The notes under the pieces were generated by a model. The model saw only the letters and a program-made list of their open reading frames with translations. It made no database searches and was not told the origin of the DNA. Below are positions 17,973 through 45,901 of a DNA stretch of 64,000 bases, one piece after another; the stretch's first letter is position 1; each line of letters begins with the position of its first letter. The position numbers were made by a program, and so were the translations under genes. This DNA is from a candidate division WWE3 bacterium (lineage in GTDB: Bacteria; Patescibacteriota; WWE3; UBA101185; UBA10185). The DNA is taken from the NCBI GenBank assembly GCA_052035175.1, contig JBPOHV010000001.1, forward strand, positions 169,569 through 233,568, written 5' to 3'.

Positions 17973-17984
17973 TGGTGAGCCCAC
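17973..17984. other. candidate attL remnant (displaced tRNA-Glu 3' end)
   Basis: TGGTGAGCCCAC matches 11/12 positions of the tRNA-Glu 3' terminus TGGTGACCCCAC (45827-45838). Same orientation, in an intergenic position. A match this short could be chance. Confidence 0.2.
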
Positions 17985-18106
17985 TGTCCCCATTTTGGAA
18001 CACCTCTTCGAGAGCTTAATACGTACTTCTGAAAGACTCCAAGAGTTAGGCTTTACCTATTATAATGGAAAAGTGACTGTTATTGAAACTCAAGAGGAGG
18101 GAAACA

Positions 18107-18547
18107 ATGGATAACTCCTCTCTTTTTGACGAAAGGACATTTTATAAGCAATTTATACCCGATTTACTTCGATGTGATCATGAGGTTATTATCGAAAGTC
18201 CATTCATAACTAGTGAACGAATGGCTACTTTGTATCCTGTTTTTGAAAAACTAGTGAACCAAGGTGTAAAGGTTTATATCATAACCAGAGATCCTAAAGA
18301 ACACTCTAATGGCTATGAAATACAATCTGAAGCTGAAATACAGCGTTTCGAACAGTTGGGTGTACAAGTTTTCCTTTGCATAGGCAACCATCACCGCAAA
18401 TTAGCAATCCTTGATAGAAATATCCTATGGGAAGGTAGTCTCAATATTCTTTCTCAAATACAAAGTAGGGAAATCATGAGACGAATTGAAGCTAAAAGCG
18501 CAGCAGTTGAAATGTTTAATTATTTGAAGCTGGGGAGGTTTTTATAG
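18107..18547 (+). CDS. single-HKD phospholipase-D-family nuclease (Nuc-like)
   Basis: 'GNHHRKLAILD' HxKxxxxD motif. ~146 aa like plasmid Nuc. Strong AGGAGG Shine-Dalgarno 8 nt before the ATG at 18107. The ORF track began it at an upstream TTG. Confidence 0.6.
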   Translation: MDNSSLFDERTFYKQFIPDLLRCDHEVIIESPFITSERMATLYPVFEKLVNQGVKVYIITRDPKEHSNGYEIQSEAEIQRFEQLGVQVFLCIGNHHRKLAILDRNILWEGSLNILSQIQSREIMRRIEAKSAAVEMFNYLKLGRFL

Positions 18548-18550
18548 TCT

Positions 18551-18811
18551 ATGTTATACTCCAACCATATGACCAAGAAGTTTACAGGCTACGAAATCAA
18601 TGAAAAAGATATTGAGGCAACGCTACGCTATCTCATAACTGAAAAGGGTATGAAGAACGCGACACGGGAAGATGCAATTAGCTTTTTGGAGGAACATCAG
18701 GATCTTGCGCATCTTATGGCTCATAAAATAGTTGAGGATGAAAAAAGTGGAAAAATTAAACCAGTAAAACTTGAATCTGATAAGGAAAAGCAGAAAATTG
18801 GATCAAAATGA
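18551..18811 (+). CDS. hypothetical small protein
   Basis: 86-aa charged ORF abutting the nuclease gene. Confidence 0.3.
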   Translation: MLYSNHMTKKFTGYEINEKDIEATLRYLITEKGMKNATREDAISFLEEHQDLAHLMAHKIVEDEKSGKIKPVKLESDKEKQKIGSK

Positions 18812-19027
18812 CAAAATGTCAGAAGATTTTACTTTAAGTATCTTGAGTATATTCTGGAATATTTTCAACGAAGGATTCACTTCATCCCTTTCTATACGAG
18901 CATAGTAATTGGAATTAATCCCAGCCTTTTTGGCAACATCGGACTGTTTTAGTCCAAGTTCTTGTCTGGCTTCTTTTAATTTTTTCCCAATTTTTGTTTT
19001 TGGCGGCATAGTGAGATTATAAGCCAT
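18803..19027 (-). CDS. XRE-family helix-turn-helix transcriptional regulator
   Basis: 'LKQSDVAKKAGINSNYYARIERDEVNPSL' is a canonical HTH_XRE. Confidence 0.7.
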   Translation of the reverse strand: MAYNLTMPPKTKIGKKLKEARQELGLKQSDVAKKAGINSNYYARIERDEVNPSLKIFQNILKILKVKSSDILSF

Positions 19028-19164
19028 TTCATGATCTTCTGCCTAGAAACAATGTTTTTAGAATTTCAGAGTCTGAAAACCCTCTCAGGAAAGCAACTGA
19101 GTAATAAGTCTTTAATTCCTCACACTCAAACGAAGGAAATATACAATTTTTGCAACTTTTTACC

Positions 19165-21378
19165 TTATGTTTGGACCTGTATTTCTAATGTTGGTTTCAA
19201 GATCTCGAGAACTGTTCGGAACCTACTAAATACCTGGTTATACAAATTTACCTCCCTTGGAGCACTAACCTCAACTACTAGTGCATAAGGAATCTCTTGA
19301 GCTTCTCTCGATTTATTACCACCATCTCTGGCAATATAGTGAACATTAAATTCAGGATTTTTAAGACTTTTTCCAAGCATAGACCGTGAGGAAGAAACAG
19401 TGGGTTCCCACCTATGGGAATCGTACCTCTTGTCGTCCCCATCAAGGCCCTTGTAAAGCCTAGAAGAAGAAAAGAATGGTTTTGAATCTGGGTACTCCTG
19501 GTTAGGATCCTTCTTTTTGTCTTCATGAGGTCTAAAAACCATTTCAAGACCACTTTGGGTATAGTTCGCTGAATCCTGTGGGTCAGTAGAAGTGGCATAA
19601 CACATAGTGGCCTTAACTAGAACCTTTCCTCTTATTTGAGTGTTTGGAAGAGGAACCGGAATTCTCATCCATTCCCCAGGACTCAATTTACCCTGGTAGA
19701 CTACCTTTACACAGTGATCATCACATGAAGTTATTAAACCAATATCGGAGTTTAATTTTCCCCATCCTACATCCGCTATATCGTGATTTTCCTTTTCACT
19801 AGAATGGATAAGTAGTGTCTTTATTGCAAGTGGATTCAAGTTGCTGCCAAATAGTGCACGGACACCGACTGCTCCTCTCAGTACCAAAGGAGCTGCAAAG
19901 CTAGTTCCCTGTACTGGAATCGAAAAACCGGCATTATCATTATCTACGACCCAGAAAAACTCCTTGGTTGAACCACCAAATCCAAGCAAATCAGGTTTTA
20001 TATATCCAGGAAGTCTACCAGGACCAATACAACTATAGCTTGCTTTTTGCCAATTATCGCCTTGACTATCCGCAGCACCGATACATAACCCGTTAACACA
20101 ATCTGATGGAGGTTGAATACGAGCATTTCCAGAAGCTCTATCCAAATGACCATTATTACCTGCAGCTAATGTTGCCAATATTGCTCCGTCAGAGAAAACT
20201 TCATCTAGTACCGAAGTCCATGCGTGCACATCACTATCCTCAACAGGTATGTCTGGACCACAGCTTATATTGACGAAATTATAGTTAGTAGAAGTAAGAA
20301 TATCCTTGATTCTTTTAAGCACTTTTATTAGGTTGGCATCGACATTGTCACTGGCGTCAAAAACTCTATATAGATCAACGTATGAGTAGGGTTGAGGTGA
20401 TTGGACACCATCTTGCAGTGAGCCGAAAAGAAAAGCCGATGATACCCATTGTCCATGATTTACTCCATGTGCAATTGGTTGGCTTAATTTCCCAATTTCC
20501 TTTTTATCTACCCACTTTGACAAAGAACTGTTGTCGGGAAACCCACCGTCAAATATTGCAACTTTCAAATTAGGGTCAACAGGTTTTACATCTGGCAAAT
20601 TAATAGGGAAATTTATACCAGTTGAACGCAAAGCTGGTTCGAAACCACGCAGTTTGGGCATTTCTCTTAGCACTCTCAAGAAAGAGTATTCAGCAATTTC
20701 TTGCGCTTTAGTTTTTGGGGCTTCAAGTGACAAAAAACATAAACCTTTTGAAAAAATAAGATCACCAATGGTCGAGTCCCCTTCAAGGGAATCCAAATAT
20801 TTTTTAAATCCATTTACGAGATAAGATTCATCAGCTGAGGCATGTAAGACTGCTTCAAACGTCAACCGATTTTTTTCCGTATGTATTGGAATCAATTTTT
20901 CCGAAATATTCAAAGGCTTAATCATTTCTATCTTCGATAATTCCACTCCTTCGATTGAATTAGGAATGGTTCTTACCAAAAGTTCAGGTAGTGCTTCTAA
21001 TTTTGTTTTCTCTCCGGCAACGAATATTTCTGTTGTTACTACGTCGGTGGTATCTCTCTTTTTCGTCCACTTTTCCGGTTTTATCTTTGTCATCCTGCTT
21101 CCAACTTGTTCTAAATTCCACGAGCGAAATAAAGATTCTGGATAATATGATTTTGCTGTAAATTCTGGATGCAAAACGAAAGAAACCACAGTTTGGTTTT
21201 CGGGACAAGCCAAATCGGGCAAAGATTGAACAGATTTTAAAGTCTGACCAATTTGGACCCCAAGCCTTTTCACGGATTCCTCAAAAGAATATGGCATGCT
21301 CTTATTCAAAGCAGTCTTTGGAGGATCCATTTTTTCTGTTAATCGTTCACCAAAACCGAGGAGGAAATTTCTTGGCAT
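19165..21378 (-). CDS. S8 family subtilisin-like serine peptidase (IetS-like)
   Basis: Subtilase catalytic Ser motif 'GTSFAAPLV'. 'HGVNHGQ' His region. 'AAGNNGHLD' oxyanion/Asn region. Sits 2 nt downstream of the AAA+ gene. Confidence 0.7.
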   Translation of the reverse strand: MPRNFLLGFGERLTEKMDPPKTALNKSMPYSFEESVKRLGVQIGQTLKSVQSLPDLACPENQTVVSFVLHPEFTAKSYYPESLFRSWNLEQVGSRMTKIKPEKWTKKRDTTDVVTTEIFVAGEKTKLEALPELLVRTIPNSIEGVELSKIEMIKPLNISEKLIPIHTEKNRLTFEAVLHASADESYLVNGFKKYLDSLEGDSTIGDLIFSKGLCFLSLEAPKTKAQEIAEYSFLRVLREMPKLRGFEPALRSTGINFPINLPDVKPVDPNLKVAIFDGGFPDNSSLSKWVDKKEIGKLSQPIAHGVNHGQWVSSAFLFGSLQDGVQSPQPYSYVDLYRVFDASDNVDANLIKVLKRIKDILTSTNYNFVNISCGPDIPVEDSDVHAWTSVLDEVFSDGAILATLAAGNNGHLDRASGNARIQPPSDCVNGLCIGAADSQGDNWQKASYSCIGPGRLPGYIKPDLLGFGGSTKEFFWVVDNDNAGFSIPVQGTSFAAPLVLRGAVGVRALFGSNLNPLAIKTLLIHSSEKENHDIADVGWGKLNSDIGLITSCDDHCVKVVYQGKLSPGEWMRIPVPLPNTQIRGKVLVKATMCYATSTDPQDSANYTQSGLEMVFRPHEDKKKDPNQEYPDSKPFFSSSRLYKGLDGDDKRYDSHRWEPTVSSSRSMLGKSLKNPEFNVHYIARDGGNKSREAQEIPYALVVEVSAPREVNLYNQVFSRFRTVLEILKPTLEIQVQT

Positions 21379-21379
21379 A

Positions 21380-22471
21380 TTAATCTCCTTTAATCTTCTT
21401 GCTTAGAGTAGTTCTGCTGATACCAACCATCTCACTGGCACTTCTTTGAGAACTACCTAAGCTAACCATTAATTTAGCTACTTTCAATTTTGATTCTTTA
21501 TCTAATTTATCAATGTGTTGCGTGAAATATTCAACAACAGCATTATCTAATTTAATTTTTTTTATCACTGACTGTTTTCTAATTGATAACACAGCCCTTT
21601 CAATATCGCTAAAAGACAAAGAATTTAAAAGTGATACCAAATAATTTTTAACCTCTTTTGACTCAATTTTCTCTTTTCCCAAATAAAGGTCTACAGCCTT
21701 AACAACTTGCTCTGTTAAAGGCATTGGAAATTCAATCTCTAAATCAAATCTTCTCCATACTGCTGGGTCTAACAATGAAGCATGGTTTGTCGCAGCAATT
21801 AATAAACTATGCTCTGGCCACTCATCTATCTCTTGAAGAATGACTGTTACTAATCTCTTAAGTTCTCCAACATCTGCATTGTCATCTCTTTTTTTAGCAA
21901 TAGCATCAATTTCATCCAAAAGTAAAACACATTCCATACCCTTTGCGTAATCAAGTACATTTCTAATATTTGAGCCAGTGCGACCCAAAAAACTGCTCAT
22001 GACAGCGGATAAATCAAGTACCAAGAGGGGCATGCCTAATTTATAGGCAACCCATTTTGCTGCTAATGATTTACCGACACCAGGCTTTCCAGTAAATATA
22101 ATTGATTTTGTTGCTTGTAAACCATGCTCTCTTAATTTTCTTTTCTGTGTTCTTTCTACAATTACCTGATTAAAAATTTTTTGAATGGAATTTTCCCAAA
22201 TTGGCTCAAAGTCTAAAATGGGTTTATGAAACATACGAACCAGCTCTAGTCTAGTATCTAAGTCTACTGGGATATTGGCCATTTTTGTGTTTCTAAAACC
22301 ACTTACATTTCCTTTGTGAAATATATTTAATTTATTACTCAAATCTGGATAGTTTTCTTTAAGAACTTTGTGATGACGCTTGAGGTACATCTGCAAATCT
22401 TCAGACTTATTTTCAGCAGACAATCTTATTAGCTGGTACAGAATTTCTTGTATGTTCTTTTTTTGAGCCAT
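21380..22471 (-). CDS. AAA+ ATPase with C-terminal Fis-type HTH (IetA-like)
   Basis: Walker A 'GKPGVGKS'. Walker B 'LLLDEID'. Sensor-1/Arg-finger region 'ATNHASLLDPAVWRRFD'. C-terminal 'GISRTTLSKKIK' Fis/NtrC-type HTH. Confidence 0.7.
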   Translation of the reverse strand: MAQKKNIQEILYQLIRLSAENKSEDLQMYLKRHHKVLKENYPDLSNKLNIFHKGNVSGFRNTKMANIPVDLDTRLELVRMFHKPILDFEPIWENSIQKIFNQVIVERTQKRKLREHGLQATKSIIFTGKPGVGKSLAAKWVAYKLGMPLLVLDLSAVMSSFLGRTGSNIRNVLDYAKGMECVLLLDEIDAIAKKRDDNADVGELKRLVTVILQEIDEWPEHSLLIAATNHASLLDPAVWRRFDLEIEFPMPLTEQVVKAVDLYLGKEKIESKEVKNYLVSLLNSLSFSDIERAVLSIRKQSVIKKIKLDNAVVEYFTQHIDKLDKESKLKVAKLMVSLGSSQRSASEMVGISRTTLSKKIKGD

Positions 22472-22619: not shown

Positions 22620-23228
22620 TTAATGCAAAAACACCATGGGATCTACTGGCAACCCAAACACGCGTATTTCAAAATGTAAATGTGGTCCGGTTGCCCAACC
22701 AGTCTCACCCATTTTGCCTATTACATCTCCTAGTTTTACTTCCTGGCCTTTAAATACATAAATTTTGTCAAGATGTGCATAGACCGAGCTAATGTTGTTG
22801 CCATTGTCAATAATAATATGCTTGCCATATCCCCAGAAGATTTCACCTGCATAGATGACTTTCCCATCCATAAAAGCAATCACTGGATCACCAATTTTTC
22901 CTTGAGGATTAGCAATATCCAGCCCCGTATGAAATACCTGATACAGACTTGATTCACCAAACTTTAGAGTAACAACTCCTTGTGCTGGCCATGCAAATGG
23001 ACCTGGTACTTCTGCAAAAACACTTCCATCTTTGGGATTGAGAACTTGGATGGTACTGGTATTAACCTCAACATCAACCAGTGCATCAGACACAATATTG
23101 ATACCCGTGTGCATGAGGATGAATACGGCAATAACCGGAAGTGATAAAACAATCAGGAATGAAAAGAGGACAAGCTTCAGTTCGTTACGAAATGACCAAA
23201 TTGTACTAGCAGTAAATAGTGGATGCAT
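22620..23228 (-). CDS. M23 family metallopeptidase (T4SS-associated cell-wall hydrolase)
   Basis: N-terminal TM anchor. 'HTGLDI' and 'GPHLHFEI' zinc-ligand motifs of LytM/M23. Last gene of the conjugation operon. Confidence 0.75.
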   Translation of the reverse strand: MHPLFTASTIWSFRNELKLVLFSFLIVLSLPVIAVFILMHTGINIVSDALVDVEVNTSTIQVLNPKDGSVFAEVPGPFAWPAQGVVTLKFGESSLYQVFHTGLDIANPQGKIGDPVIAFMDGKVIYAGEIFWGYGKHIIIDNGNNISSVYAHLDKIYVFKGQEVKLGDVIGKMGETGWATGPHLHFEIRVFGLPVDPMVFLH

Positions 23229-23232: not shown

Positions 23233-25062
23233 TTATGTATAGATCTCCCTCGGATCAGTGGTTAAAAGGGGATGCTCTTTCTCTGAAGCAACTACTTTCA
23301 CCGCCACATGGTTTTGATCGGCTATAACCAGAGCTTCTCCACGATCACAAGTCAATAGAAAATGCTGTTCATATTCACTCAAATGAAACTCTTGGGCTAC
23401 TTTTTTAATGGTTGTTGTATCCTGCTTCATAAGAATCCTCAGCGAGGATTGTGATGCAACTGCACGACCATAATCTTGATTTAAAAAGTCATTGGCCTGT
23501 TGGCTGATAATCGTTACTCCCAAGTAATATTTTCTGGCTCTGCGAACGAGTCCTGCCACAAACCTCGCACTTTCCTCATGTTGCAGGAGTAGCCAGCCCT
23601 CATCGATGACGAGGATTCTCTTTTGTGGATGTGATTTGACTTGTGAATGCACAAAGTTGGCAATCGTGAGCATCATGACTTGTCTTAATGATTCATCCAA
23701 ATCTTTAATATCAAATACCACCAATCGATTATCAAGTTTTACATTGGTTTGTGAATCAAAAACAGATGAGAGTGAACCTGTCACAAACTTATCAAGCCGG
23801 TGGCATAACTCTTTTTGATTCATAGCTTTGAGTTCTTTATAAAAATCTTTCAATTGAGGCATAGTGACGTTTTTGCTTCTATTCTCTTTCTTCATGGTAA
23901 TTCCGACTTTCTTGTACGTTTGGATAAGGGCTTTATCAACCACTGCCTTTTCTTCATCTGAGAGTGAACCAGCCATCAGAGAAATAATTTCAGTAAGGTC
24001 TTGGATATGTTCAGCTAAGGCATTTTCACCAGTTGCCGTATGCAATGAAAAATCAAAGGGATTGATCTTTTCGTGGGAAGTTGCTGATAATTTGATGTAT
24101 GTACCTTTAACAGATTTCGCCAGTTGCTTGTACTCCCGTTCGGGGTCAATGACGATTACCTTGGTGCCTTGCATGAGCTGGCGCAAGATTTCAACTTTTG
24201 CGGTATAACTTTTACCACTGCCTGATTGGGCAAAGATAATTGAGTTAGCATTGTTTAGTGAGAATCGATCCACAATAACGAGCGAATTGTTTGACCTATT
24301 AATCCCATACAATATCCCTGATTCTTGTACTAACTCTGAAGATACAAACGGGAATGTTAAAGCAGCTGACGAACTATCAAGATTTCTTCTCTGCCCTAAT
24401 TGATTCTCTCCTCGAGGAAGAACTGACTGTAAGCCTTCGAGTTGTTGGAAGGTAGCAGTTTTAAGATAAAAGAGTCTGGTGGACATGACTGTTTCTAAAA
24501 TGGTAGTGGTTTTATCGAGTTCAGTTAAGGAATCTGCTGTAATCGTCATGTAGATTGAGATTTGGAATAGTTTTTCTTGGCCTCGTTGGATTTTGTCTTT
24601 TAACTCCATTGCCGACTCCAAAGGGTCAGTAATTTCTGAACCAATCACTTTACCCGCTTTGAGCATTGAGCGCTTGGTTGATTCAAGCTCAGTGATTTTT
24701 CTATTTAGTTTTGGTAATGCTAAGAGTGGATCAACGTGTTCAATGTGATACGAAATATCAATATTGTGGTTAAAGTTAATCAGCATATTGAGCCAACCCA
24801 CAGATGCTACATATGGATAACCGGAGATGAAAAGTGTTCGAACACATTTATCTCCCACTTTAAGATATGAAGATTCTTCTGACAGTCCGGAATATGAAAT
24901 GAGGTCAACTTGATCTTGTTCACCAAAATGAAACTCAACTGCTTTCTTGGTGATTTCTTTAGTAGTAGCTTTTCGCTTTCTTTTCTTTAGTTTAGGAAAT
25001 TTAAAAGTTAATCTACTAAGTGGCAGTTTTTGTAATAATTGTGGTGTTGGGATATTAAACAT
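23233..25062 (-). CDS. VirB4/TrsE-type conjugative transfer ATPase (ATPase portion)
   Basis: Walker A 'AQSGSGKSYTAK'. Walker B 'LVIDEGW'. Matches VirB4 size and layout once combined with the upstream ORF. Confidence 0.75.
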   Translation of the reverse strand: MFNIPTPQLLQKLPLSRLTFKFPKLKKRKRKATTKEITKKAVEFHFGEQDQVDLISYSGLSEESSYLKVGDKCVRTLFISGYPYVASVGWLNMLINFNHNIDISYHIEHVDPLLALPKLNRKITELESTKRSMLKAGKVIGSEITDPLESAMELKDKIQRGQEKLFQISIYMTITADSLTELDKTTTILETVMSTRLFYLKTATFQQLEGLQSVLPRGENQLGQRRNLDSSSAALTFPFVSSELVQESGILYGINRSNNSLVIVDRFSLNNANSIIFAQSGSGKSYTAKVEILRQLMQGTKVIVIDPEREYKQLAKSVKGTYIKLSATSHEKINPFDFSLHTATGENALAEHIQDLTEIISLMAGSLSDEEKAVVDKALIQTYKKVGITMKKENRSKNVTMPQLKDFYKELKAMNQKELCHRLDKFVTGSLSSVFDSQTNVKLDNRLVVFDIKDLDESLRQVMMLTIANFVHSQVKSHPQKRILVIDEGWLLLQHEESARFVAGLVRRARKYYLGVTIISQQANDFLNQDYGRAVASQSSLRILMKQDTTTIKKVAQEFHLSEYEQHFLLTCDRGEALVIADQNHVAVKVVASEKEHPLLTTDPREIYT

Positions 25063-25675
25063 AGTGATGTTCCAGTAACCTTTCTATGGTTTGACCTTTG
25101 AGCGCCTGAGTTTTTATTTGGGACGGGTTGTAGAAACTGTAGAAAAGATCCAGAATTTCTAAACTATCCAGTTGTCTGGCTTTCATCCCCAGTTTATCCA
25201 ATCCCTTCATTACTAAATCACGGGTTAAATGGAGTTGTTCCTTTACTAACTCTCTATCAGGATGTTTGTCTTCTGAATGGTGGGGAATGACAACGTAGAA
25301 ATGTCTGGAGAGAATTTTATTACCACTTACCAAATTTCGAATGAAGTCACAGTAGGCTTGGATTTGTAGTTTATAGACCGTCTCTTTTTCCTTCTCTTTT
25401 GTCTGAAGAATTTGACCCACATAATCGTCAATATCTAGTTCCCGTACTCGAATGAGAATTTGGAGTTTGCAAGGAAGAGCGTTTAAGAAGTTTTGGAAGC
25501 TATCAATTAACACATCCTGCTCATCTTCACTTTTCAACTCAAAATTAACCGATGAAGAAGCCAACACAAGCCTATATTCGTTATTAGGAAGGGTTAAGAT
25601 ACCATCCTGCACTTCCTTAATGGCAATCTGTCTTCGTGAACTCACCTTATTTTGCGATTTCTTGAAAAGCCACAT
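25055..25675 (-). CDS. VirB4 N-terminal domain ORF (split from the ATPase portion)
   Basis: Resembles N-terminal domains of Gram-positive VirB4 homologues. Its stop overlaps the start of the ATPase ORF at the 8-nt 'ATGTTTAA' overlap, in a different frame. Confidence 0.45.
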   Translation of the reverse strand: MWLFKKSQNKVSSRRQIAIKEVQDGILTLPNNEYRLVLASSSVNFELKSEDEQDVLIDSFQNFLNALPCKLQILIRVRELDIDDYVGQILQTKEKEKETVYKLQIQAYCDFIRNLVSGNKILSRHFYVVIPHHSEDKHPDRELVKEQLHLTRDLVMKGLDKLGMKARQLDSLEILDLFYSFYNPSQIKTQALKGQTIERLLEHHYV

Positions 25676-28745: not shown

Positions 28746-28746
28746 G

Positions 28747-29235: not shown

Positions 29236-29308
29236 TTTTGTAGTTTAACAAAAAATTAGTTTGAAAACAAAAAATTTAATATATTTAGTTCCTAACCAAT
29301 ATTTACAC

Positions 29309-32352: not shown

Positions 32353-32455
32353 ACGTTTCCTCTATTAAATTTTTATACCTTAAAATCTCCCATACACAAA
32401 TTTTCTAACTTCTACTATACCGATGCGTATTTGACCACTCACTTTCTAATGATAG

Positions 32456-32935: not shown

Positions 32936-32951
32936 ACAATATCACCCCCTT

Positions 32952-36451: not shown

Positions 36452-36479
36452 AATTACTTTCTTTCATATCCAGCAGAAC

Positions 36480-37753: not shown

Positions 37754-37782
37754 ATATTTTCTTTCATTTCATACTAAAAAAA

Positions 37783-38541
37783 TTAACTTTGCAAAGCCTT
37801 CTCGATCATCGGCTTTACTTGTTCAAAAGGTAAAGCACCGTTAATAAATTGTGTAGTGCCTTTCGCATCAATAATTATGGTACCTGGTGTTCCAGTTACG
37901 CCTTCTTCTGTTCCCTTAGCCATTTGATCCTTGACTTTCTGTGCCATTTCTCCCGAGTCTAAACATTGTTTAAAAGGTGCTTCATTTAATCCGAGCTCTT
38001 GGGCAAGAGGAACAAGTTTGTCTAGGGCAAAACCGGTTCCATTGCCACTTGTTCGTGCAAAAATTGCATCCGCGTATTTCCAGAAACTATCATTACCACC
38101 AAGTTTTCCGGCACACTCTGCCGCTTCTGCCTCTTTTTGAGCATTGGCGTGGAAGGAAAGCGGGTAGTGGCGATAAACCCACTTTACTTTATCACCGTAT
38201 TCCTTCATGACTTGCTGCATAGTTGGATGAAACCTAATACAAAATGGGCACTCTAAATCAGAATATTCAACCAGCACTACTTTGGCATTTTTATTACCCT
38301 TATACCAATCTACGTCCGTCACTTCTGGTTTTTTGGTCGCTTGTTTTGGAGCGGGTGGTTGAGCAGCGGCATTTCCTGCAGATGGCGCGTTTCCTTGATT
38401 TACAGCACCTGCTACCACTGCACCTTTTTCTAAATATTTCACTTTAGTTGTCAGAGAACCAATTACAAATGAAGCTCCAATAAGAAGGACAACTAGTATG
38501 GAAGGGAAATTTATAAAACTACGTTTTTTTTCTTCTGACAT
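37783..38541 (-). CDS. membrane-anchored DsbA family thiol-disulfide oxidoreductase
   Basis: TM anchor. Pro/Ala linker. 'LECPFC' CxxC. DsbA-like helical insertion. Confidence 0.65.
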   Translation of the reverse strand: MSEEKKRSFINFPSILVVLLIGASFVIGSLTTKVKYLEKGAVVAGAVNQGNAPSAGNAAAQPPAPKQATKKPEVTDVDWYKGNKNAKVVLVEYSDLECPFCIRFHPTMQQVMKEYGDKVKWVYRHYPLSFHANAQKEAEAAECAGKLGGNDSFWKYADAIFARTSGNGTGFALDKLVPLAQELGLNEAPFKQCLDSGEMAQKVKDQMAKGTEEGVTGTPGTIIIDAKGTTQFINGALPFEQVKPMIEKALQS

Positions 38542-38611
38542 ATTTTATTTCTATAATTTAATAATCTACTACAAACTGTAGTAGAACAAGGAATGATTGT
38601 CAATAAGCTAC

Positions 38612-39625
38612 TTATTTAGAAGTAAAAGCTGAGGTATAAGGAATAGAACTATTTGAGGTGCTACTCATTGGTGGTATAACTGTGGCATTTTCTCTACACC
38701 AATTAGCGCACTCACTATCGTTCATGCATACCATCATAACATCCTCGTTATTTTCATGCAGATCTATTGCATTAACTGGTGCAATTAATAATCCATACAT
38801 CATAAGTATTGATATCACACTTATTCCTATACGGAGAAATGAAACTTTTGGGTAAACTGCTCTCTGCTCAATCAAGGCTTTTATTCTCAATTCCAATGTA
38901 TCCCATTCAGCAAGAGAAGTTGCAAGTACGAATACTGGTGTGGGAGTACAACACATTAATTTCTTAAGGACTGAAACAAGTGATTCGTTTCCATTCATTG
39001 CTTGAGTAACCGCATGATCAGCGTTGACCTCTCTTTGTATTTGGTAGTGCTTGATAATATCAATCAGTATTGGAAGAAATGGGAACAGCGAGTGTGTCAT
39101 TGATGCCAATAAATGAGTCAGGCTATCTCGATGTTCTAGATGGTATTTTTCATGGTGAAGGACAGCCTCAAGTTCGCTCATGGTGGTCAATGCCAAAAGT
39201 CTAGTTGAAATATAAATTTTAGGGTTCCGGATGCCAAAACAAAATGCAAATGGTTTGTTATCGTTTATAACGAATACTTTGTTAAGTAAGTTTATCTTTT
39301 TTATTAAAGTACTGTAGCGTATAGGCAATGGTTGGGTTTGCAAGGCTTTTCTAAAGAAATAAATTCTGGTAATGGTATAAGCTAATTTAAGGAATACTAT
39401 CCCTACCATTAGGATTCCTATGATAAATATAAACGGACCAACCTCCTTGGGTATTTGAATAGAGAATGACCGAAGCATCTCTTGGCAGTAGTAAACAGTC
39501 TTATGGAGAAAAAGAGGCAGGTATTTTTGAATAATGACCTTTACTGAAAGGACTAATATCCCAAAGAGTCCAGAAAAAATAATTAAGTGCTTATGCTTTT
39601 TTATCATATTGATCCAAAAGCTCAA
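38612..39625 (-). CDS. BlaR1/MecR1-family M56 signal-transducing metalloprotease lacking a penicillin-binding sensor domain
   Basis: 4 TM helices. 'HEKYHLEHRD' HExxH gluzincin motif in the expected loop. Short Cys-containing C-terminal tail instead of a transpeptidase-like sensor. Confidence 0.6.
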   Translation of the reverse strand: MSFWINMIKKHKHLIIFSGLFGILVLSVKVIIQKYLPLFLHKTVYYCQEMLRSFSIQIPKEVGPFIFIIGILMVGIVFLKLAYTITRIYFFRKALQTQPLPIRYSTLIKKINLLNKVFVINDNKPFAFCFGIRNPKIYISTRLLALTTMSELEAVLHHEKYHLEHRDSLTHLLASMTHSLFPFLPILIDIIKHYQIQREVNADHAVTQAMNGNESLVSVLKKLMCCTPTPVFVLATSLAEWDTLELRIKALIEQRAVYPKVSFLRIGISVISILMMYGLLIAPVNAIDLHENNEDVMMVCMNDSECANWCRENATVIPPMSSTSNSSIPYTSAFTSK

Positions 39626-39971
39626 GGAAATATTTCCGTTTTGCTTCAGGCAAACTATCTACTGACTGCGCAAACGAGGCAATTGCTATATCACCAAATG
39701 AGGTAACAAGTTTTTGCATAAACGACTGGGCAATGTTTCTGCTATATCGCTCTTTTGAAACTCTCGCGCTATACATAATTGTGCCTTGGTCCTCAATTTT
39801 TTTAACCAATCCTTTGTCATGAAGTCTTTGCAAAACTGTTGCTATTGTCGTGTATGCCAGTTGTCTAGTTTGATTTATTATTTCTAATACATCTCTAACT
39901 GAGCAGTTTTCTTGCTCCCACACGACGCTCATAACTTCTTGTTCAAGGTTGCTTAATGTTTTAGCTGTCAT
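39591..39971 (-). CDS. BlaI/MecI/CopY family transcriptional repressor
   Basis: Winged-helix 'SNLEQEVMSVVWEQENCSVRDVLEII...AYTTIATVLQRLHDKGLV', typical of penicillinase-repressor/CopY family. Confidence 0.7.
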   Translation of the reverse strand: MTAKTLSNLEQEVMSVVWEQENCSVRDVLEIINQTRQLAYTTIATVLQRLHDKGLVKKIEDQGTIMYSARVSKERYSRNIAQSFMQKLVTSFGDIAIASFAQSVDSLPEAKRKYFLELLDQYDKKA

Positions 39972-40053: not shown

Positions 40054-40827
40054 TTATGGATCTTTAGGCTCCACTTTCTGTAATGTATCTCTGGTTAGTC
40101 CTTTTGTTTTTATTAGTTCCCTTGTTGAAAGGTAAAAATGTAGCCTTGCTTCATCCTCAAGCTTCTTTCGAATCTCTTTATGCAAATAGTTTTTTGACCG
40201 ATCATCTGGGCAGACAAAAATAATTTCTGGGAATGGTTTATCAGTGTGATCCTGCCAGTACTCATTCTCGTAATAGTCAAAATATTGCTTAACTCGCTTA
40301 TAAAGAACATTTTTCGGTGGTAATTCATCAAAGATATCAAGGAAGTATCTTTTTGTTCTCCCATTTGCTTCTTCGATTGAAAAATAAGCATCGGGATTGG
40401 GCAGGATAAGATACTGCATATCATCTAAATCCACTTTGGTATAAAAATTCAGTTTGGCTTTGGTTTTGTTAGTGAGTTCAACTAAAGAAAGATAAATATC
40501 TGCTACAAACAAACAGTGGTTTTTAAACTGTGTTGATAGCGTTGGTTCCCTCCAAACTCGATCCAAAAGCTCAGGCTTCACTGTACTGAATTTGTCTGGA
40601 TTACTCTTCAAATACTTTCTGCCTTTTAATCCTAATGAATACAGAGCTGGTATGGTAACTGTTTTGGGATTGTAATAACGTCTGATGTGTCCAGATTCGG
40701 TTAGTTCGTTGAGCCAGATGATAATGCGGTTGAAGTGTTTGTGATGGAGTAGATGTTGGATGTGAATACGGTGTAAGAAACGGAAGCGATAGAGATAATT
40801 AAATATGTTGTCGTGTTGGTTGTTCAT
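40054..40827 (-). CDS. putative replication-relaxation family protein (relaxosome candidate)
   Basis: Basic/His-rich N-terminal wHTH-like region. Position immediately downstream of the coupling protein. No HUH motif seen. Confidence 0.3.
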   Translation of the reverse strand: MNNQHDNIFNYLYRFRFLHRIHIQHLLHHKHFNRIIIWLNELTESGHIRRYYNPKTVTIPALYSLGLKGRKYLKSNPDKFSTVKPELLDRVWREPTLSTQFKNHCLFVADIYLSLVELTNKTKAKLNFYTKVDLDDMQYLILPNPDAYFSIEEANGRTKRYFLDIFDELPPKNVLYKRVKQYFDYYENEYWQDHTDKPFPEIIFVCPDDRSKNYLHKEIRKKLEDEARLHFYLSTRELIKTKGLTRDTLQKVEPKDP

Positions 40828-40956: not shown

Positions 40957-43503
40957 CTAACTCAAGGTATCTACATCCGTATAAAGTGTAGGCTGATTAC
41001 CATGTTTCTTCTCAGTTTTTGACTCAGATCGTATCGTAGTTTGTACAACGGGACTTTTATACTCGACAGCAAAGTTCTTTCGTGAGGCTTCAATCACTTC
41101 GTTTGCTTTTTGCATATTTTCTTCAATCTTGACAGGAATAGTAACCCCCGAAAACGGCTCTTCTGGATTAAGTGCGCCAAGTCTTATATAGAAATGGTAT
41201 GAAGGTAAACTGGCTATTTCTCCTTGTTCAATATATGGCCTAAACTGTGGCAAGATCATTCGTTCGTCTTCTGGGTTTGCAGTCCTAAAACAAATAACTG
41301 TTCCTGTATTAGCCAGGGTTACATTTACAAGTGACGTTTCTTCGAGTTGTGAAGTTGTTTGATGGGCAAGGATTGCGCCTAACCTATATTTTCTTGCTTC
41401 CGAAAGAATTTGCGCAAATGCAGGTGTGGCAAAGTTTTGGAACTCGTCAACATATAAATAGAAGTCTTTTCTTTGCTCTTGAGGGATCCTAGCTCTCTTT
41501 AAAGCTGCAAGTTGAATCTTGGCCATAATCAATACTCCAAATACCTCTGAGTTATCTTCTCCAATCTTTCCTTTGGAGAGATTGCACAAGAGTATTTTGC
41601 CTTCGTTGAGAATCGTGTCAAAGTTGACAGTCGATTTACCTTGTTCAAGTATTCTCTTGGCAGTTGGAGAAAACAGAAACCGCCCAATCTTATTTGTAAT
41701 CGGAGAGATCATTTTCACTTTCTGATAATCACCAGCCTTGGCAAACTCATACTTCCAAAAGTCTTTCAGGTTTTCATCAACGATGTTTTTAGTGACCGAA
41801 TTTCTGTAGGGTGTATTGATAAGTAACTTGTAGACAGTAAACAGTGTGGCATCTGGAACTGTAAAGGCAGTATGAATAGTATTTCGGAGGATATATTCCA
41901 TTCTCGGTCCAGAGTACTTATCAGAGTAGATTTTATGGAACACAGAGATAATGCTTTCTGCAATAAATTCTTTTTCTCTCACGGCATCTTCCGCACTTAA
42001 TCCTTGGGTTAATTCGAGTAAATTAATCCCCATCGGATAGCTAATGTCGTCTGGATTAAAGTACACAACATCTGGTATTCGCTTTGTAGGAATAGTTGAT
42101 AAGGCTTGTTCTATTAAATCTCCATGCGGATCTATCACACATAGACCTTTGCCGTTATGAATATCTTGATTAATCATGGATAAGAGCATGGTTGATTTAC
42201 CTGTGCCCGTAGCTCCCAAAATATATACATGTCGCCTTCTTTCATCTAAAGATAACCCGATATTTGTACTACTTCCTCCATAGGTATTTTTGGCAAATAT
42301 AATGTCTAAATCCTGAGCACGCTTGAGTGAAACCGGAGCTGGAAGTTCTTTACTGTGCAGTTTAACCAAGTCTTCAGTTTTAGTTGTACTCGTAAATGGC
42401 AAATGATAGATATCACTTATTTCTGAAACTGAAAGAATAGAATTGCTAAAAATACCAAGCAACCTATTTCTGAAAAGAAATGTCTTTAATGTTTTTATTA
42501 ACCTCAGTTTGATGTGCAATGACGGAATGATTGCCTGATATCCAGAATTACCAAAGGAAGAAAGAGCTGAAATGAACCCTCGTTCTCTTTTGCGAATTTC
42601 AGCGTAGTTGTTTCCCACAATGAGTAAGCGAATAGAAGTAGTAAATAATTGTTGATCTAGCTTTTCTTTTACCAACTGCTCAAGCTCCATTTGATAGGGA
42701 TTATCAGTTTTCTTTTGATTTCTATTTAGGAAAAAAGACCAGAATGGTTTTCTTTTAATATTCTTCAAAAGATCACTGTTTGAATAAATAAGTTGTGAGA
42801 TTCGAGAGATATCTTTTACCAAAGATTTGGTTACTGGCGATACCACCAACTGGAAAGATACTAATTCATTTTCTTCCAGCTTGGTCATACTTCCTGTGGT
42901 GTAAGCAATGGGATCGTGTTTCTCTAAGACGGCTTGCTTCTTTAAGGGAAAGGCAAAGTGGTTTGATAATTTAAATTCTGTGATTTTAAGTAAGGACTTT
43001 CCAATGCCGCCAAAACCGTAATCATCAACTTCTTTAACACTCACTCCTGGAAGATATGAAAATAGACTCTTTTTCAGTAAGTCCGCATCTTCAGACACGA
43101 TCCGAATCAAATATCTGATTCCTTGGTCTTTTGTCGCCACAATCTCGAATGAATAGCTATTACTAAGTCCTAATACTCTCGACCAAAAAGTTCGCTGACG
43201 AGCCAGACCATGAATGAGGTTAAATAATTCCTGTGTAGTATATGGACTTTGTTCTGTGGTCTTGAGCGGTTTGACTTCAAGGATAGTGTAGTTTTGTCTC
43301 AGTTGCAGTTTTATGTGAAACAACTTAAACAGAAGGAGTAAATCGAGTGCAATAAGTAGAGCCAAGAGAAGATATACAAAAACAATAGACACAAGAGGCC
43401 AGGATCCAGAAATGTGTACTTGAGAAAGAAATGAAGAAACTTGCGGAAAAAGTTTAGAAAAAAGAATATTGTTAGTGAATAGTTCTTGTAATCCTGTATT
43501 CAT
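40957..43503 (-). CDS. type IV coupling protein (VirD4/TraG/TcpA-like)
   Basis: Two N-terminal TM helices. Walker A 'GATGTGKST'. Walker B 'LYVDEFQNF'. 'AHQTTSQL' motif typical of TraG/TrwB ATPases. Confidence 0.75.
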   Translation of the reverse strand: MNTGLQELFTNNILFSKLFPQVSSFLSQVHISGSWPLVSIVFVYLLLALLIALDLLLLFKLFHIKLQLRQNYTILEVKPLKTTEQSPYTTQELFNLIHGLARQRTFWSRVLGLSNSYSFEIVATKDQGIRYLIRIVSEDADLLKKSLFSYLPGVSVKEVDDYGFGGIGKSLLKITEFKLSNHFAFPLKKQAVLEKHDPIAYTTGSMTKLEENELVSFQLVVSPVTKSLVKDISRISQLIYSNSDLLKNIKRKPFWSFFLNRNQKKTDNPYQMELEQLVKEKLDQQLFTTSIRLLIVGNNYAEIRKRERGFISALSSFGNSGYQAIIPSLHIKLRLIKTLKTFLFRNRLLGIFSNSILSVSEISDIYHLPFTSTTKTEDLVKLHSKELPAPVSLKRAQDLDIIFAKNTYGGSSTNIGLSLDERRRHVYILGATGTGKSTMLLSMINQDIHNGKGLCVIDPHGDLIEQALSTIPTKRIPDVVYFNPDDISYPMGINLLELTQGLSAEDAVREKEFIAESIISVFHKIYSDKYSGPRMEYILRNTIHTAFTVPDATLFTVYKLLINTPYRNSVTKNIVDENLKDFWKYEFAKAGDYQKVKMISPITNKIGRFLFSPTAKRILEQGKSTVNFDTILNEGKILLCNLSKGKIGEDNSEVFGVLIMAKIQLAALKRARIPQEQRKDFYLYVDEFQNFATPAFAQILSEARKYRLGAILAHQTTSQLEETSLVNVTLANTGTVICFRTANPEDERMILPQFRPYIEQGEIASLPSYHFYIRLGALNPEEPFSGVTIPVKIEENMQKANEVIEASRKNFAVEYKSPVVQTTIRSESKTEKKHGNQPTLYTDVDTLS

Positions 43504-43581
43504 GCCTACTTTTTTTAGGGCAACATGAGCAGGCTTATATTACTGAGGGAAGTATATATCAGGGTTAGTGTATTGGCAAAA

Positions 43582-43863
43582 TTATTTGCCTGAATCAGCC
43601 CTTGATGCAATTTTTTGAATTTTTTGAGCGATTTCTTCTTCAACACCTAAATCCCTAGTTACTATTGTAAGGGCACCGTACATGAGCTCTGACCGACTCG
43701 TCTCCTCTGGAAGATTGAGCATCTGAGCTAATACTCCAAAAGAATGATCAATTAAAAATTGATTTGGAGAGTGATCAAGAAGCAATAGCATGCACTGTCC
43801 CAGTTGATGAGAGATACCTTGTGCAGGGGTTTCTGTACCTCTCCTATTTGCTTCTAATGGCAT
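43582..43863 (-). CDS. hypothetical small protein
   Basis: 93-aa ORF upstream of the coupling protein gene. Confidence 0.3.
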   Translation of the reverse strand: MPLEANRRGTETPAQGISHQLGQCMLLLLDHSPNQFLIDHSFGVLAQMLNLPEETSRSELMYGALTIVTRDLGVEEEIAQKIQKIASRADSGK

Positions 43864-43993
43864 ATTATTACCTCGTTAGCCAAGTATTATATATCCTGGT
43901 CAAAACATTTTATAGGCTCTTGACAAGGTTATCTCAAAATATTATATTATCTATATATGGATAGTGTAAATTAAAGATTTATCTGATTTTGAT

Positions 43994-44170
43994 ATGGGAA
44001 GAGCAATACGTAAGGTAACTACAACTAAAAGAAAATCTCCGAAAACCCCTACTCCTTTATTGTCTCTTGAAGAGCAACTGAAAGTTTTTGCCAATGTTAT
44101 CGTAGATAGAATCTTAGAAGAACAGCAAAACGGCAATGTTTTATTGAGTAAGGAGAAACAGCATGGATAA
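43994..44170 (+). CDS. small basic protein, possible excisionase / recombination directionality factor
   Basis: 58-aa ORF absent from the ORF track. Its stop overlaps the recombinase ATG (44163). Confidence 0.3.
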   Translation: MGRAIRKVTTTKRKSPKTPTPLLSLEEQLKVFANVIVDRILEEQQNGNVLLSKEKQHG

Positions 44171-45848
44171 TGTAGCACGCCAAGAAAATGCGGTTGCAGC
44201 AATTCGAGTATCTTCTATTAAACAAGGCCTACAAGGCGATTCTCCAGAGCACCAAAAGGAGCAGATAGAACGCTTCGCCCAGGCTCATAATATTCATATT
44301 AAGAAATTCTTTATTTTCATGGAATCGGCTTCAAAAGAGGAACAGCCAGTCCAAGAAGCTATAGATTATTGTAAAAGTTCAAAAAATAACATTCAACTTT
44401 TCGTTATCAAATCTATAGATAGATTTACCCGCGGGGGTTCATACCTCTATGACCATTTAAAGATGCAACTAGTGAAATACAACGTTCAACTAGTGGATAT
44501 TTACGGGGTAATTGGTAGTCAGGAAGTAAACACCCTTGAACATTTGGGGATTGAATATGACTGGAGTATATATAGTCCAACCAAAAAGTCAGAAATCCTT
44601 GAAGCCGAAAGAGCAAAAGATGAGATGCGAGATATTATGACCAGAATGATTGGTGCAGAAATTCGCTATGTCCGATTGGGATTTAGAGTTCGGCGTGCTC
44701 CCTACGGTTATATGAACGAAAAAGTTGAAACCTCACATGGTAAACGAGTTATTCTAAAACCCCACCCCGAAGAATCACAGTGGATTTTAAAAATGTATGA
44801 ACTTCGTTGTCGAGGTACGATGACTGATCAGCAGATTGTAGACGAAATAAATACATTGGGTTTTCGTTCTAGAAAACAATATAGACGAAATCCTCAAGAC
44901 AGGACTAAAGTCATCGGTGAAACAGGTGGAAATAAACTTATCCTTAAACAATTCTGGCGTTACGTTGAAAGTCCTATCTATGCAGGGGTAAATGTTGAGA
45001 AATGGACAAATGGTCAGCCAATAAAGGGTAAGTTTCAAGGTTTAGTACCTATTGAAATGTATAACAAAGCAAACAAAGGCAAAGTCACTCTCACAGAAGA
45101 AGCTGGTGAAGTACGATTATGGAAAAGAAAGCCAGCAGAATGGTACATAAAGAAAGATCCAAACAATCCAGCATTTCCCTATAAAAAGTATGTCACCTGC
45201 ACTCACTGTCAGAAACCTTTTTTTGGAAGTACTTCAAAGGGTAAAAGATTAAGATATTCTGCATACCATTGTAATAGGGGGCATAAATACTACCGTGTAC
45301 CAGTAAGTGAATTTAACGAAACTATTGAGACCTTCGTAAAGGGTGTAAAGCTAAATATGACCCCTGAATATATTGAAGAACTGAAAAAGTATGTTCTAGA
45401 GGCTTGGAATAGCCGTACGGAAGGAATTAAAAAGGATGCAGTAAACATTGATACAAAAATTCAGGAACTACAAATGGCATCGAAAGCTACCGCAGATAAG
45501 ATACGCTTTCTCAGTTCAGAAGTAGCCATCAAATATATGGAAGACGATTTAGTAAAGATTGATGGGGAAATAAAGCAATTAGAAGAAACAAAGGTTCAAA
45601 AAGATACAAAATCTACAAATATGGAGTTAGTGATGAAATACATAGAATACTTTTTGGAACACCTTGAAGATTTATTGCTGGGAAGCCCAAACCCTCTTAA
45701 AAGAGCTGCCTACTTTGGCCTACTCTTCGATGGACTGCCTACATATCAAGATTTGTGTTTTGGAACACCTAAATTAGCACCATATTTAGGACTAAAACAG
45801 CAGTTTGCTACTGCCTTACTCCCTAATGGTGACCCCACGGGGAGTTGA
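44163..45848 (+). CDS. large serine recombinase (integrase)
   Basis: N-terminal resolvase domain with catalytic Ser context 'AAIRVSSIKQG'. Recombinase domain, then zinc ribbon 'CTHC...YHCNRGH', then coiled-coil. The 3' end runs 22 nt into tRNA-Glu. Confidence 0.8.
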   Translation: MDNVARQENAVAAIRVSSIKQGLQGDSPEHQKEQIERFAQAHNIHIKKFFIFMESASKEEQPVQEAIDYCKSSKNNIQLFVIKSIDRFTRGGSYLYDHLKMQLVKYNVQLVDIYGVIGSQEVNTLEHLGIEYDWSIYSPTKKSEILEAERAKDEMRDIMTRMIGAEIRYVRLGFRVRRAPYGYMNEKVETSHGKRVILKPHPEESQWILKMYELRCRGTMTDQQIVDEINTLGFRSRKQYRRNPQDRTKVIGETGGNKLILKQFWRYVESPIYAGVNVEKWTNGQPIKGKFQGLVPIEMYNKANKGKVTLTEEAGEVRLWKRKPAEWYIKKDPNNPAFPYKKYVTCTHCQKPFFGSTSKGKRLRYSAYHCNRGHKYYRVPVSEFNETIETFVKGVKLNMTPEYIEELKKYVLEAWNSRTEGIKKDAVNIDTKIQELQMASKATADKIRFLSSEVAIKYMEDDLVKIDGEIKQLEETKVQKDTKSTNMELVMKYIEYFLEHLEDLLLGSPNPLKRAAYFGLLFDGLPTYQDLCFGTPKLAPYLGLKQQFATALLPNGDPTGS

Positions 45849-45901
45849 ACCCCGATTACCAGATTGAGAATCTGGTGTCCTAACCGCTAGACGATGGGGC
45901 C
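45827..45901 (-). tRNA. tRNA-Glu (anticodon CUC)
   Basis: Reverse complement folds as a cloverleaf. Acceptor GGCCCCA/UGGGGUC, D-arm GTCT..GGAC, anticodon stem CCAGA/TCTGG with loop TTCTCAA, T-arm GGGGT-TCAACTC-CCCGT (first T-stem pair G·T), encoded CCA. Confidence 0.85.

Follow-up and report, generated by a model that had tools for sequence, protein, structure and literature searches.

We analysed a 64,000-nucleotide (nt) stretch of a candidate division WWE3 (Patescibacteria) genome, which lies within a 925-kb NCBI contig and is called the window here, and found that positions 17973–45832 very probably represent one integrated conjugative element of ~27.86 kb in the WWE3 chromosome. An earlier note on this DNA had proposed a ~28-kb integrative and conjugative element (ICE) at tRNA-Glu(CUC), and comparison with a family of related elements backed both its borders and its reading as a single unit. 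This reading is carried by the genes present, the two borders, tRNA targeting throughout the family, the geometry of the attachment (att) sites attP and attB, and attP-like junctions in relatives. The relatives comprised 80 loci found with the window VirB4 and 80 metagenomic loci found with the window integrase (160 in total; single loci are cited by L numbers). tRNA genes were called with ARAGORN and Rfam, domains with Pfam and defence genes with PADLOC, and the conservation of small open reading frames (ORFs) was assessed with tblastn.

In the proposed mechanism, a large serine integrase encoded at the right end would have inserted the element through recombination of attP with the 3' end of the tRNA-Glu(CUC) gene of the host, the crossover lying in or next to a shared TGGTGA at the discriminator/CCA position. 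The tRNA body would then stay host DNA, with at most ~6 nt replaced. As B' half-site, the integrase would use the 3' strand of the tRNA acceptor together with the T-loop (TCGAAC), and the P' half-site at the left end would present the same two motifs 5 bp further apart. For transfer, a PF13814 protein would nick an origin of transfer (oriT), and a VirD4-type coupling protein (T4CP) would hand the DNA to a type IV secretion system (T4SS); relaxase activity and conjugative transfer are what we infer for this element.

Borders, target tRNA and attachment sites

The att sites and the target gene were placed as follows:
17973–18001, plus strand: attL, with core TGGTGA at 17973–17978 followed by the element's P' arm, GTGAGCCCACTGTCCCCATTT-TGGAAC (basis: start of inter-element homology)
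45790–45855, plus strand: attR, with P arm (3' end of the integrase gene, int), core TGGTGA at 45827–45832 and B' arm (basis: comparison with related loci)
45827–45901, minus strand: tRNA-Glu(CUC), the host target gene (attB) (basis: ARAGORN, Rfam)

The right border coincides with the tRNA 3' terminus (45827–45832), and the left border lies at 17973–17978. When the ends next to the PLD-family nuclease gene (PLD) were aligned, the similarity shared with about 20 related elements of other genomes began at (TG)GTGAGCC (17973/17975), and the DNA upstream was unrelated. GTGAGCC and the following ~25 nt were conserved among elements of unrelated genomes, in register with s51, a small ORF at this end. 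The left border given in the earlier note (17973) was exact, since it coincides with the start of this homology. The three ORFs to the left of 17962 (14275–17962) had no match in either the 80 VirB4 or the 80 integrase loci, and the nearest of them, a 267-amino-acid ORF at 17159–17962, matched only itself among 5.8 billion proteins and had no Pfam or PADLOC match, making it an ORFan. The compositional comparison proposed in the earlier note revealed a step at each border: GC content was 0.380 within the element and 0.343 in the flanks, a modest contrast, and tetranucleotide distance stepped up at 16–18 kb and down at 44–46 kb. No long direct or inverted repeats bracketed the element in the 10–52 kb searched, as expected for a serine integrase.

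The left border carries a 12-mer, TGGTGAGCCCAC (17973–17984), which is identical to 45827–45838 at 11 of 12 positions and in the right orientation, as the earlier note had reported. The expected number of such matches, allowing no more than one mismatch, is 0.06 per window; besides the self match, two were found (17973 and 2171). Taken alone, as the earlier note cautioned, the match is weak and only mildly unlikely to arise by chance; its position falls exactly where inter-element homology starts. The other 11/12 match to the tRNA-Glu 3' end, 2171–2182 (TGGTGACCGCAC), is intergenic with housekeeping-type genes around it; it was rejected as an att site because of these neighbours and because no T(C/G)GAAC occurs at +16 or +21, and it is probably a chance match.

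The earlier note had taken the 12-mer as the displaced original tRNA end and the layout as the classic one in which an element rebuilds the tRNA 3' end. Under such a tyrosine-integrase-style arrangement, the crossover would lie at least ~12 nt inside the tRNA, the element would supply a new 3' end, and 17973–17984 would be the displaced original. The direct match in the right orientation and place fits this arrangement, as does the resemblance of other elements' left ends to particular tRNA 3' ends (e.g. L077 versus tRNA-Arg). However, no tyrosine integrase (phage-integrase-type ORF) was found in 17.9–45.9 kb, where the sole recombinase is of the serine type. Read as a tRNA end, moreover, the 12-mer gives a C3:C70 mismatch in the acceptor stem, and the tRNA-Glu genes of L011 and L013 have GACCCC. 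A search for a displaced tRNA fragment as a direct repeat gave no second copy of a 25-mer at up to 3 mismatches, only the 11/12 match. The GTGAGCC stretch kept at the ends of elements from unrelated genomes also stands directly after int in attP-like contigs, and its spacing to T(C/G)GAAC is 5 bp longer, which marks an attP half-site and not a tRNA. We consider the tyrosine-style arrangement hardly probable at all. By these sequence comparisons, the 12-mer is element DNA, namely the inner part of a P' arm that mimics the tRNA 3' half (acceptor and T-arm), and the junction at the discriminator/CCA, made by a serine-type enzyme with at most ~6 nt replaced, does not correspond to the classic rebuilding layout.

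The spacing of motifs on the two sides of the core was then compared. In tRNA genes, the G of GTGA directly follows the discriminator on its 3' side, and the T-loop motif TCGAAC begins 16 nt after this G; in attR, the B' arm consists of the tRNA acceptor 3' strand plus T-arm, and TTGAAC likewise lies 16 nt after this G. In attL, the T(C/G)GAAC motif occupies 17996–18001, 21 nt after the G, and the same distance from the anchor was found in 20 of the 20 P' arms listed and also in L037, L042, L054, L098 and L151. A distal (zinc-ribbon domain, ZD) motif that lies 5 bp nearer the centre in attB than in attP is a signature of large serine integrases (PMC3783163). The difference between 21 and 16 nt, examined on the P'/B' side, equals this attP/attB offset and thus supports the tRNA acceptor 3' strand plus T-arm as B' and a mimic of it expanded by 5 bp as P'. 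This geometry places the crossover in or beside the shared TGGTGA, with a host-derived tRNA body and at most ~6 nt from the element; the exact crossover dinucleotide would lie within or near TGGTGA. The predicted sites read ...ACTAAAACCTT-TGGTGA-CCCCACGGGG... for attB and ...CTCCCTAA-TGGTGA-GCCCACTGTCCCC... for attP, and the predicted junction stretches are ...GCCTTACTCCCTAATGGTGAGCCCACTGTCCCCATTTTGGAACACC... for attP and ...GGGTTGCCTTGACTAAAACCTTTGGTGACCCCACGGGGAGTTGAACC... for the empty attB. A 9-mer common to 17961–17969 and 45790–45798 (GACTAAAAC) has different offsets from the core on the two sides and was judged a chance match.

The host VanW protein encoded beside the element had best non-self matches of only 52–53% identity, pointing to candidate division WWE3. 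Two WWE3 relatives, L011 and L013, keep the order tRNA-Gln/NYN/VanW/AF_1845-like/tRNA-Glu(ctc) with no element or recombinase after the tRNA. This synteny identifies tRNA-Glu as a host gene at a conserved place with unoccupied sites in existence; the empty site that the earlier note had sought in related genomes is thus present in both loci, which are distant. The DNA downstream of tRNA-Glu was variable among WWE3 relatives. The 5' 43-mer of the tRNA had no exact match in genome contigs, and no close relative was reached by that route. Three genes to the right of the element, a tRNA-Gln(ctg) gene at 50102–50175 is unoccupied in the window and is targeted by related elements in the WWE3 loci L169–L171.

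The integrase family and attP-like junctions

Two genes overlap at the right end of the element:
44163–45848, plus strand: large serine integrase (Int), 561 amino acids (basis: Pfam Resolvase N-terminal domain; fold matches)
43994–44170, plus strand: conserved 58-amino-acid ORF (s58) overlapping the int start (basis: tblastn, 41–61% identity in ~20 loci)

ORF coordinates and the ARAGORN and Rfam tRNA calls agreed with the earlier description of a serine recombinase gene at 44163–45848 that ends 22 nt inside the 3' end of the minus-strand tRNA-Glu. The stop codon lies in the T-loop, the last seven codons (NGDPTGS) are antisense tRNA, and the 22-nt overlap is the int ORF reading through into antisense tRNA. 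The catalytic domain (PF00239, E = 8e-9, residues 11–113) carries the R-x-S-S motif near the N-terminus, and R15, S17 and S18 as well as C346, C349, H369 and C370 were invariant in 31 integrase homologues. In the predicted structure (AlphaFold), helices at 401–479 form a long coiled coil. Foldseek aligned the model over >500 columns with full-length large serine integrases bound to att sites (SPbeta-type entries, Bxb1 and phiC31; E = 1e-15 to 1e-9). With a catalytic domain, recombinase domain, zinc ribbon and coiled coil, the recombinase is, on its predicted fold, a large serine integrase.

The integrase belongs to a large family that is well conserved in Patescibacteria, with 1,694 homologues at E < 1e-10, the best 120 of which are 60–77% identical. 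A convergent tRNA gene abutted or overlapped the int 3' end in 66 of the 80 metagenomic integrase loci, and 7 of the other 14 loci stop at a contig edge. The targets were tRNA-Glu(ctc/ttc), Lys, Arg, Gln, Ser, Asp and Ile. At their C-termini, the 120 homologues carry translated antisense tRNA (e.g. G[DE]P.G.RT.. or GFEPPT..), and the conserved part of the protein stops at (V/L)P.G, with the tRNA terminus immediately after it. In L007, int overlaps a tRNA-Lys gene by 58 nt, which is plain read-through. The PLD-side end lies within ~30–100 nt of the 5' end of another tRNA gene in L037, L042, L045 and L054, which fits insertion into tRNA arrays.

The earlier note also described a 58-amino-acid ORF overlapping the integrase start, and this ORF was kept upstream of the integrase in ~20 relatives. 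It had no Pfam match; we regard it as a candidate directionality factor or regulator, and the label 'Xis-like' given to it stays a guess.

In L095, L098, L122, L151, L020 and the left end of L167, the int 3' end is joined directly to P'/s51/PLD. These attP-like junctions could be circular forms or tandem copies, and they show that the PLD end and the Int end belong to one unit. The integrase or its 3' remnant also lies against the P'/PLD end inside long chromosomal contigs (L020, 15400–17300; L047, 14156–20706; L167, 1930–2010), and these junctions look like tandem or decayed copies.

In the window element, the int frame (..CCT AAT GGT GA..) and the s51 frame (..TTT GGT GAG CCC..) coincide, so an excised form would encode an integrase extended by s51. 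The predicted product in the excised circle reads ...LLPNGEPTVPILEHLFESL... and has ~47 extra residues. In-frame int–s51 fusions were found in P0084/L095, L098, L122 and P0096, and in the L020 subfamily the two frames differ and no fusion was seen.

Transfer genes, cargo and the conserved unit

From right to left, the remaining genes of the element are:
40957–43503, minus strand: VirD4-type coupling protein, T4CP (basis: Pfam TrwB_AAD_bind, TraG-D_C)
40054–40827, minus strand: Replic_Relax (PF13814, MOBC-type) candidate relaxase (basis: Pfam, E = 9.7e-10)
27981–39971, minus strand: cargo, namely BacA/UppP, plastocyanin-like protein, two P1B ATPases, HMA, cupredoxins, DsbD/DsbA, and a BlaI/CopY-type repressor with an M56/M48 sensor (basis: Pfam, precomputed annotation)
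27483–27818, minus strand: VirB2/TrbC-type pilin (basis: Pfam; in 67/80 loci)
26162–27451, minus strand: polytopic membrane protein with an N-terminal T4SS_pilin domain, in the VirB6/PrgH position (basis: Pfam; in 70/80 loci)
25647–26165, minus strand: PrgI/VirB3-like protein (basis: Pfam; in 72/80 loci)
25055–25675, minus strand: TrsD-like protein, akin to N-terminal VirB4/TraC (basis: weak TraC_F_IV match; in 77/80 loci)
23233–25062, minus strand: VirB4-type ATPase (basis: Pfam P-loop_TraG/AAA_10)
22620–23228, minus strand: M23 peptidoglycan hydrolase of the T4SS operon (basis: Pfam; in 76/80 loci)
21380–22471, minus strand: IetA, cargo (basis: PADLOC, E = 1.6e-82)
19165–21378, minus strand: IetS, cargo (basis: PADLOC, E = 1.2e-40)
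18803–19027, minus strand: HTH_3 (Xre-type) helix-turn-helix regulator, core (basis: Pfam; in 46/80 loci)
18551–18811, plus strand: small conserved ORF s86 (basis: tblastn in 8/80 loci, between PLD and HTH)
18083–18547, plus strand: PLDc_2 (PLD-family) nuclease (basis: Pfam; in 50/80 VirB4 loci)
17959–18114, plus strand: small ORF s51 (basis: tblastn matches in at least 12 related loci, always upstream of PLD)

The gene content is that of an ICE. A site-specific recombinase lies at one end, mating-pair-formation genes including VirB4 are present, the coupling protein domains and PF13814 (the latter in a candidate relaxase) score above the Pfam cutoffs, and the att borders at 17973–18001 and 45790–45855 enclose the whole gene set (>100 related loci compared). 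No phage structural genes were present, and a prophage was rejected. Most gene assignments of the earlier note were borne out by Pfam and PADLOC: the T4CP and the replication-relaxation-like protein to the left of the integrase, the compact monoderm-type T4SS operon (pilin, VirB6-like, VirB3-like, split VirB4 and M23), and the cargo of uppP/bacA, a heavy-metal island and an IetAS-like pair. Its 'split VirB4' corresponds to the TrsD-like protein (25055–25675) plus the VirB4 P-loop protein (23233–25062); TrsD was described in the survey of Quinonero-Coronel et al. 2025 (PMC12102498). PF13814 belongs to the MobC relaxase superfamily (PMC5357655), and the Replic_Relax gene was linked to T4CP and Int in relatives. 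T4CP was present in 33 of the 40 integrase loci with enough upstream DNA. The earlier assignment of the PLD nuclease to the cargo did not hold, as PLD is a conserved end-proximal core gene.

Across the 80 VirB4 loci and the integrase loci, the recurring order was Int-s58-T4CP-Replic_Relax-(cargo)-pilin-VirB6-PrgI-TrsD-VirB4-M23-(cargo)-HTH-(s86)-PLD-s51-end. Variable genes were confined to the two slots in brackets, and the window cargo occupies the same two. Because both slots hold variable genes in other members, the metal genes plus BacA on the one hand and IetAS on the other were classed as cargo, and PLD and HTH as core. BacA and the metal cargo were absent from the compact relative L097, and similar metal genes occurred in the same T4CP–pilin slot in L018, L047, L050, L064 and L085. 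IetA (AAA ATPase) and IetS (S8 protease) are adjacent on the same strand, as in an IetAS defence pair, with a predicted defence role; the pair was absent from most related elements, its slot being variable.

The collinear unit recurred in other lineages (L097, L025, L043, L067 and others). In L097 (Ga0155147_128), a closer WWE3 relative (VanW 65%), a compact version, M23...pilin-Replic_Relax-T4CP-s58-Int, occupies the same tRNA-Glu beside VanW. The distal end of the L025 element was not found by regex search. VirB4 homologues were 70–85% identical in 80 genomes, including Daviesbacteria, Roizmanbacteria, Shapirobacteria, Woykebacteria, Collierbacteria, Levybacteria, Gottesmanbacteria and others, whereas host VanW reached 53%, which indicates horizontal spread. 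Cell-to-cell transfer would account for core genes that are nearly identical between distant lineages. Two copies of the T4SS/PLD-end block lay on one contig in L017/L018 (CAJQIG010000001.1) and in L034/L037 (JBBDPM010000004.1), and these genomes apparently carry two family elements each.

Two other readings of the interval bear on this unit. According to the first, mobility is confined to the right ~6 kb (Replic_Relax, T4CP, s58 and Int), a small integrative mobilizable element (IME) that landed beside a resident host T4SS and metal island. Versions without a T4SS do exist: L167 has PLD-HTH...Replic_Relax-Int in ~9.7 kb, and in L003 the 10 kb next to Int lack a T4SS. L167, and possibly L003, look like mobilizable derivatives. 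In the survey, moreover, T4CP genes usually lie far from virB4 and the T4SS is regarded as chromosomal (PMC12102498). However, the P' arm and PLD/HTH, which are joined to Int in L122, L098 and L095, lie to the left of the T4SS and so put it between the att sites. The collinear unit recurs in other lineages with VirB4 identity across classes far above that of the host protein, and 18–46 kb contained no internal att site or second integrase. We find mobility of the right end alone very unlikely. The second reading holds that the 28 kb is composite, having accreted at a tRNA hotspot from at least two elements or islands. It can draw on the tandem or remnant arrangements in L020, L047 and the left end of L167, on the variable region downstream of tRNA-Glu in WWE3 relatives, and on block GC values from 0.34 to 0.40; against it, the interval has a single integrase and a single arm of each kind (P and P'), with no internal attP-like junction, and its variable blocks occupy the same two cargo slots as in other family members. 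The chance of accretion appears slimmer still. A single element spanning 17973–45832 agrees best with these observations.

At the left end, the first codons of s51 overlap the host flank and attL, and its stop codon (TAA, 18112–18114) overlaps the start of PLD. The likely PLD start is ATG at 18107, preceded by an AGGAGGG ribosome-binding site, and the overlap at 18107–18114 reads ATGGATAA; from this arrangement, s51 and PLD look translationally coupled.

Several further observations concern single modules. A BlaI/CopY-family repressor and an M56/M48 membrane protease-sensor lie at the edge of the copper ATPase island (38612–39971) and are possibly metal-responsive regulators rather than beta-lactam sensors. 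IetA/IetS-like genes occur in the same M23–HTH slot elsewhere (L049, 2885–5759; L083, 14754–15392). In the more distant L090–L094 (VirB4 69–73% identical), T4CP directly follows VirB4 or M23, unlike in the window family. Many contigs with such a Patescibacteria-type T4SS (within L015–L094) are titled Pseudomonadales, Gammaproteobacteria, Micrarchaeota, Anaerolineae or Methylococcaceae, which probably reflects mislabelling or mis-binning of metagenome-assembled genomes.

Transfer, meaning and comparison with known systems

Several points weigh against an integrated, transferable element as described here. No excision junction or circular form was seen for the window copy, and the sole other assembly carrying it (Logan SRR34217543) is equally integrated; its present-day excision is presumed. 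A true before/after pair with the exact empty site was not found in L011 and L013, where left-flank synteny was checked: both loci are distant (VanW 52–53%), and the DNA past their tRNA-Glu is unrelated to the window left flank. Among the P' arms, L045 and L084 are ambiguous with no clean 21-nt fit, and the anchors of the four arms without GTGA were picked by eye. No dyad symmetry was apparent between P and P', and the B arm is simply host DNA of arbitrary sequence. For the integrase, the Pfam Zn_ribbon_recom match is under the Pfam cutoff, the model is of moderate quality (predicted local distance difference test, pLDDT, 70; predicted template modelling score, pTM, 0.41), and sequence and profile searches of the PDB gave nothing significant and matched no solved integrase. 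Finally, according to a published survey, Patescibacteria T4SSs are mostly chromosomal, without relaxases and co-opted for other roles (PMC12102498), so conjugation cannot be assumed.

The last point leads to the possibility that the island is a genuine family member but domesticated, with a T4SS serving epibiotic host interaction or DNA uptake and a copy that no longer excises. Epibiotic growth in Saccharimonadia requires T4SS genes, which nearly all Patescibacteria possess, and the relaxases recognised in the phylum are few (PMC12102498); a circular form of the window copy was not seen. None of the core genes, however, is disrupted, and Int, T4CP and the candidate relaxase of MOBC type are among them. 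The family has spread recently, has several copies per genome, many tRNA targets and attP-like junctions, and exchanges cargo at fixed slots, as active elements typically do. Domestication is in our judgement unlikely.

Under two linked readings, the widespread T4SS of Microgenomatia/WWE3-type Patescibacteria, described as chromosomal and relaxase-less, might be the transfer apparatus of a large family of tRNA-targeting ICEs whose divergent MOBC-type relaxases escape standard screens, and the attP inside a coding region might act as an integration-state switch; we put this forward tentatively, as a possibility we rather doubt. If true, integration would replace the tail of the integrase by a short peptide read from antisense tRNA, and s51 and PLD would no longer be expressed together with int. 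The attP within the coding region would then, speculatively, switch both the integrase form and nuclease expression according to integration state.

Patescibacteria have tiny genomes, have not been cultured or are difficult to grow, and gene exchange among them is considered rare. The window element and its >100 relatives form a coherent mobile unit with an integrase, a coupling protein, a relaxase candidate and a T4SS, which makes conjugation in Patescibacteria directly testable. The serine integrases of this large family would find their targets at the generic acceptor/T-loop end of tRNA genes by means of an attP arm that mimics a tRNA, and with their short, predictable att sites they are candidate genetic tools for Patescibacteria and elsewhere. 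The cargo (copper/metal homeostasis, BacA and IetAS) indicates which traits may move between these organisms. The family is large and apparently undescribed, and an ICE with a large serine integrase is otherwise a known type; the points of interest are the host phylum, the targeting of tRNA ends and the clean att-site geometry. No published description of the tRNA-targeting element family was found in the literature searched, the coverage of which was limited, so an earlier description is possible.

The closest known systems are the MPF_FATA ICEs of Firmicutes with serine recombinases (e.g. Tn5397/TndX, CTn2-type and streptococcal ICEs with serine integrases). They share with the window element a monoderm-type T4SS (VirB4, PrgI/VirB3, VirB6-like protein, cell-wall hydrolase and T4CP), a relaxase, a serine recombinase at one end and cargo modules between core modules. 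Unlike them, the window element resides in an ultra-small Patescibacteria genome and has VirB2-type pilins, a TrsD partner and a MOBC-type relaxase candidate; its integrase targets the extreme tRNA 3' end via a tRNA-mimicking P' arm, and its int ORF crosses attP.

The T4SS itself resembles those surveyed in the same phylum, with VirB4, TrsD, VirB3/PrgI, VirB6-like protein and VirB2 pilins and with T4CP apart from virB4. That survey found VirB4 in 2,417 of 3,035 Patescibacteria genomes and 5,713 T4CP homologues, mostly far from virB4, with few relaxases; it used MOBscan and recovered only 58 MOBC relaxases in the phylum (PMC12102498). The surveyed T4SSs are treated there as chromosomal and largely relaxase-free, and integrases and tRNA sites go unmentioned, whereas the window T4SS lies between att sites together with Int, T4CP and a PF13814 protein. 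The candidate relaxase resembles the pAD1 TraX/MOBC relaxases in that its Replic_Relax match spans nearly the whole PF13814 model and its gene adjoins the coupling protein gene; identity is only ~35% even among family members, and nicking and an oriT are predicted.

As to the enzyme, a phiRSM-type filamentous phage enters a tRNA-Ser gene via a small resolvase-like serine recombinase (work cited in PMC7192596). The window integrase is like phiRSM in being a serine recombinase with a tRNA gene 3' end as attB. The phiRSM enzyme is a small phage recombinase with a longer shared core, not the large serine integrase of a conjugative element. With the Listeria A118/LI, SPbeta, Bxb1 and phiC31 integrases, the window integrase shares the full-length predicted fold, the R-x-S-S catalytic domain and the long coiled coil, and, as in large serine integrases (PMC3783163), the distal motif lies 5 bp further out in attP than in the attB half-site. 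It differs from A118/LI, SPbeta, Bxb1 and phiC31 in having no detectable sequence similarity to them beyond the catalytic domain and in that its target is the end of a tRNA gene, one attB half-site is arbitrary flank, and the family is borne on ICEs and IMEs rather than phages.

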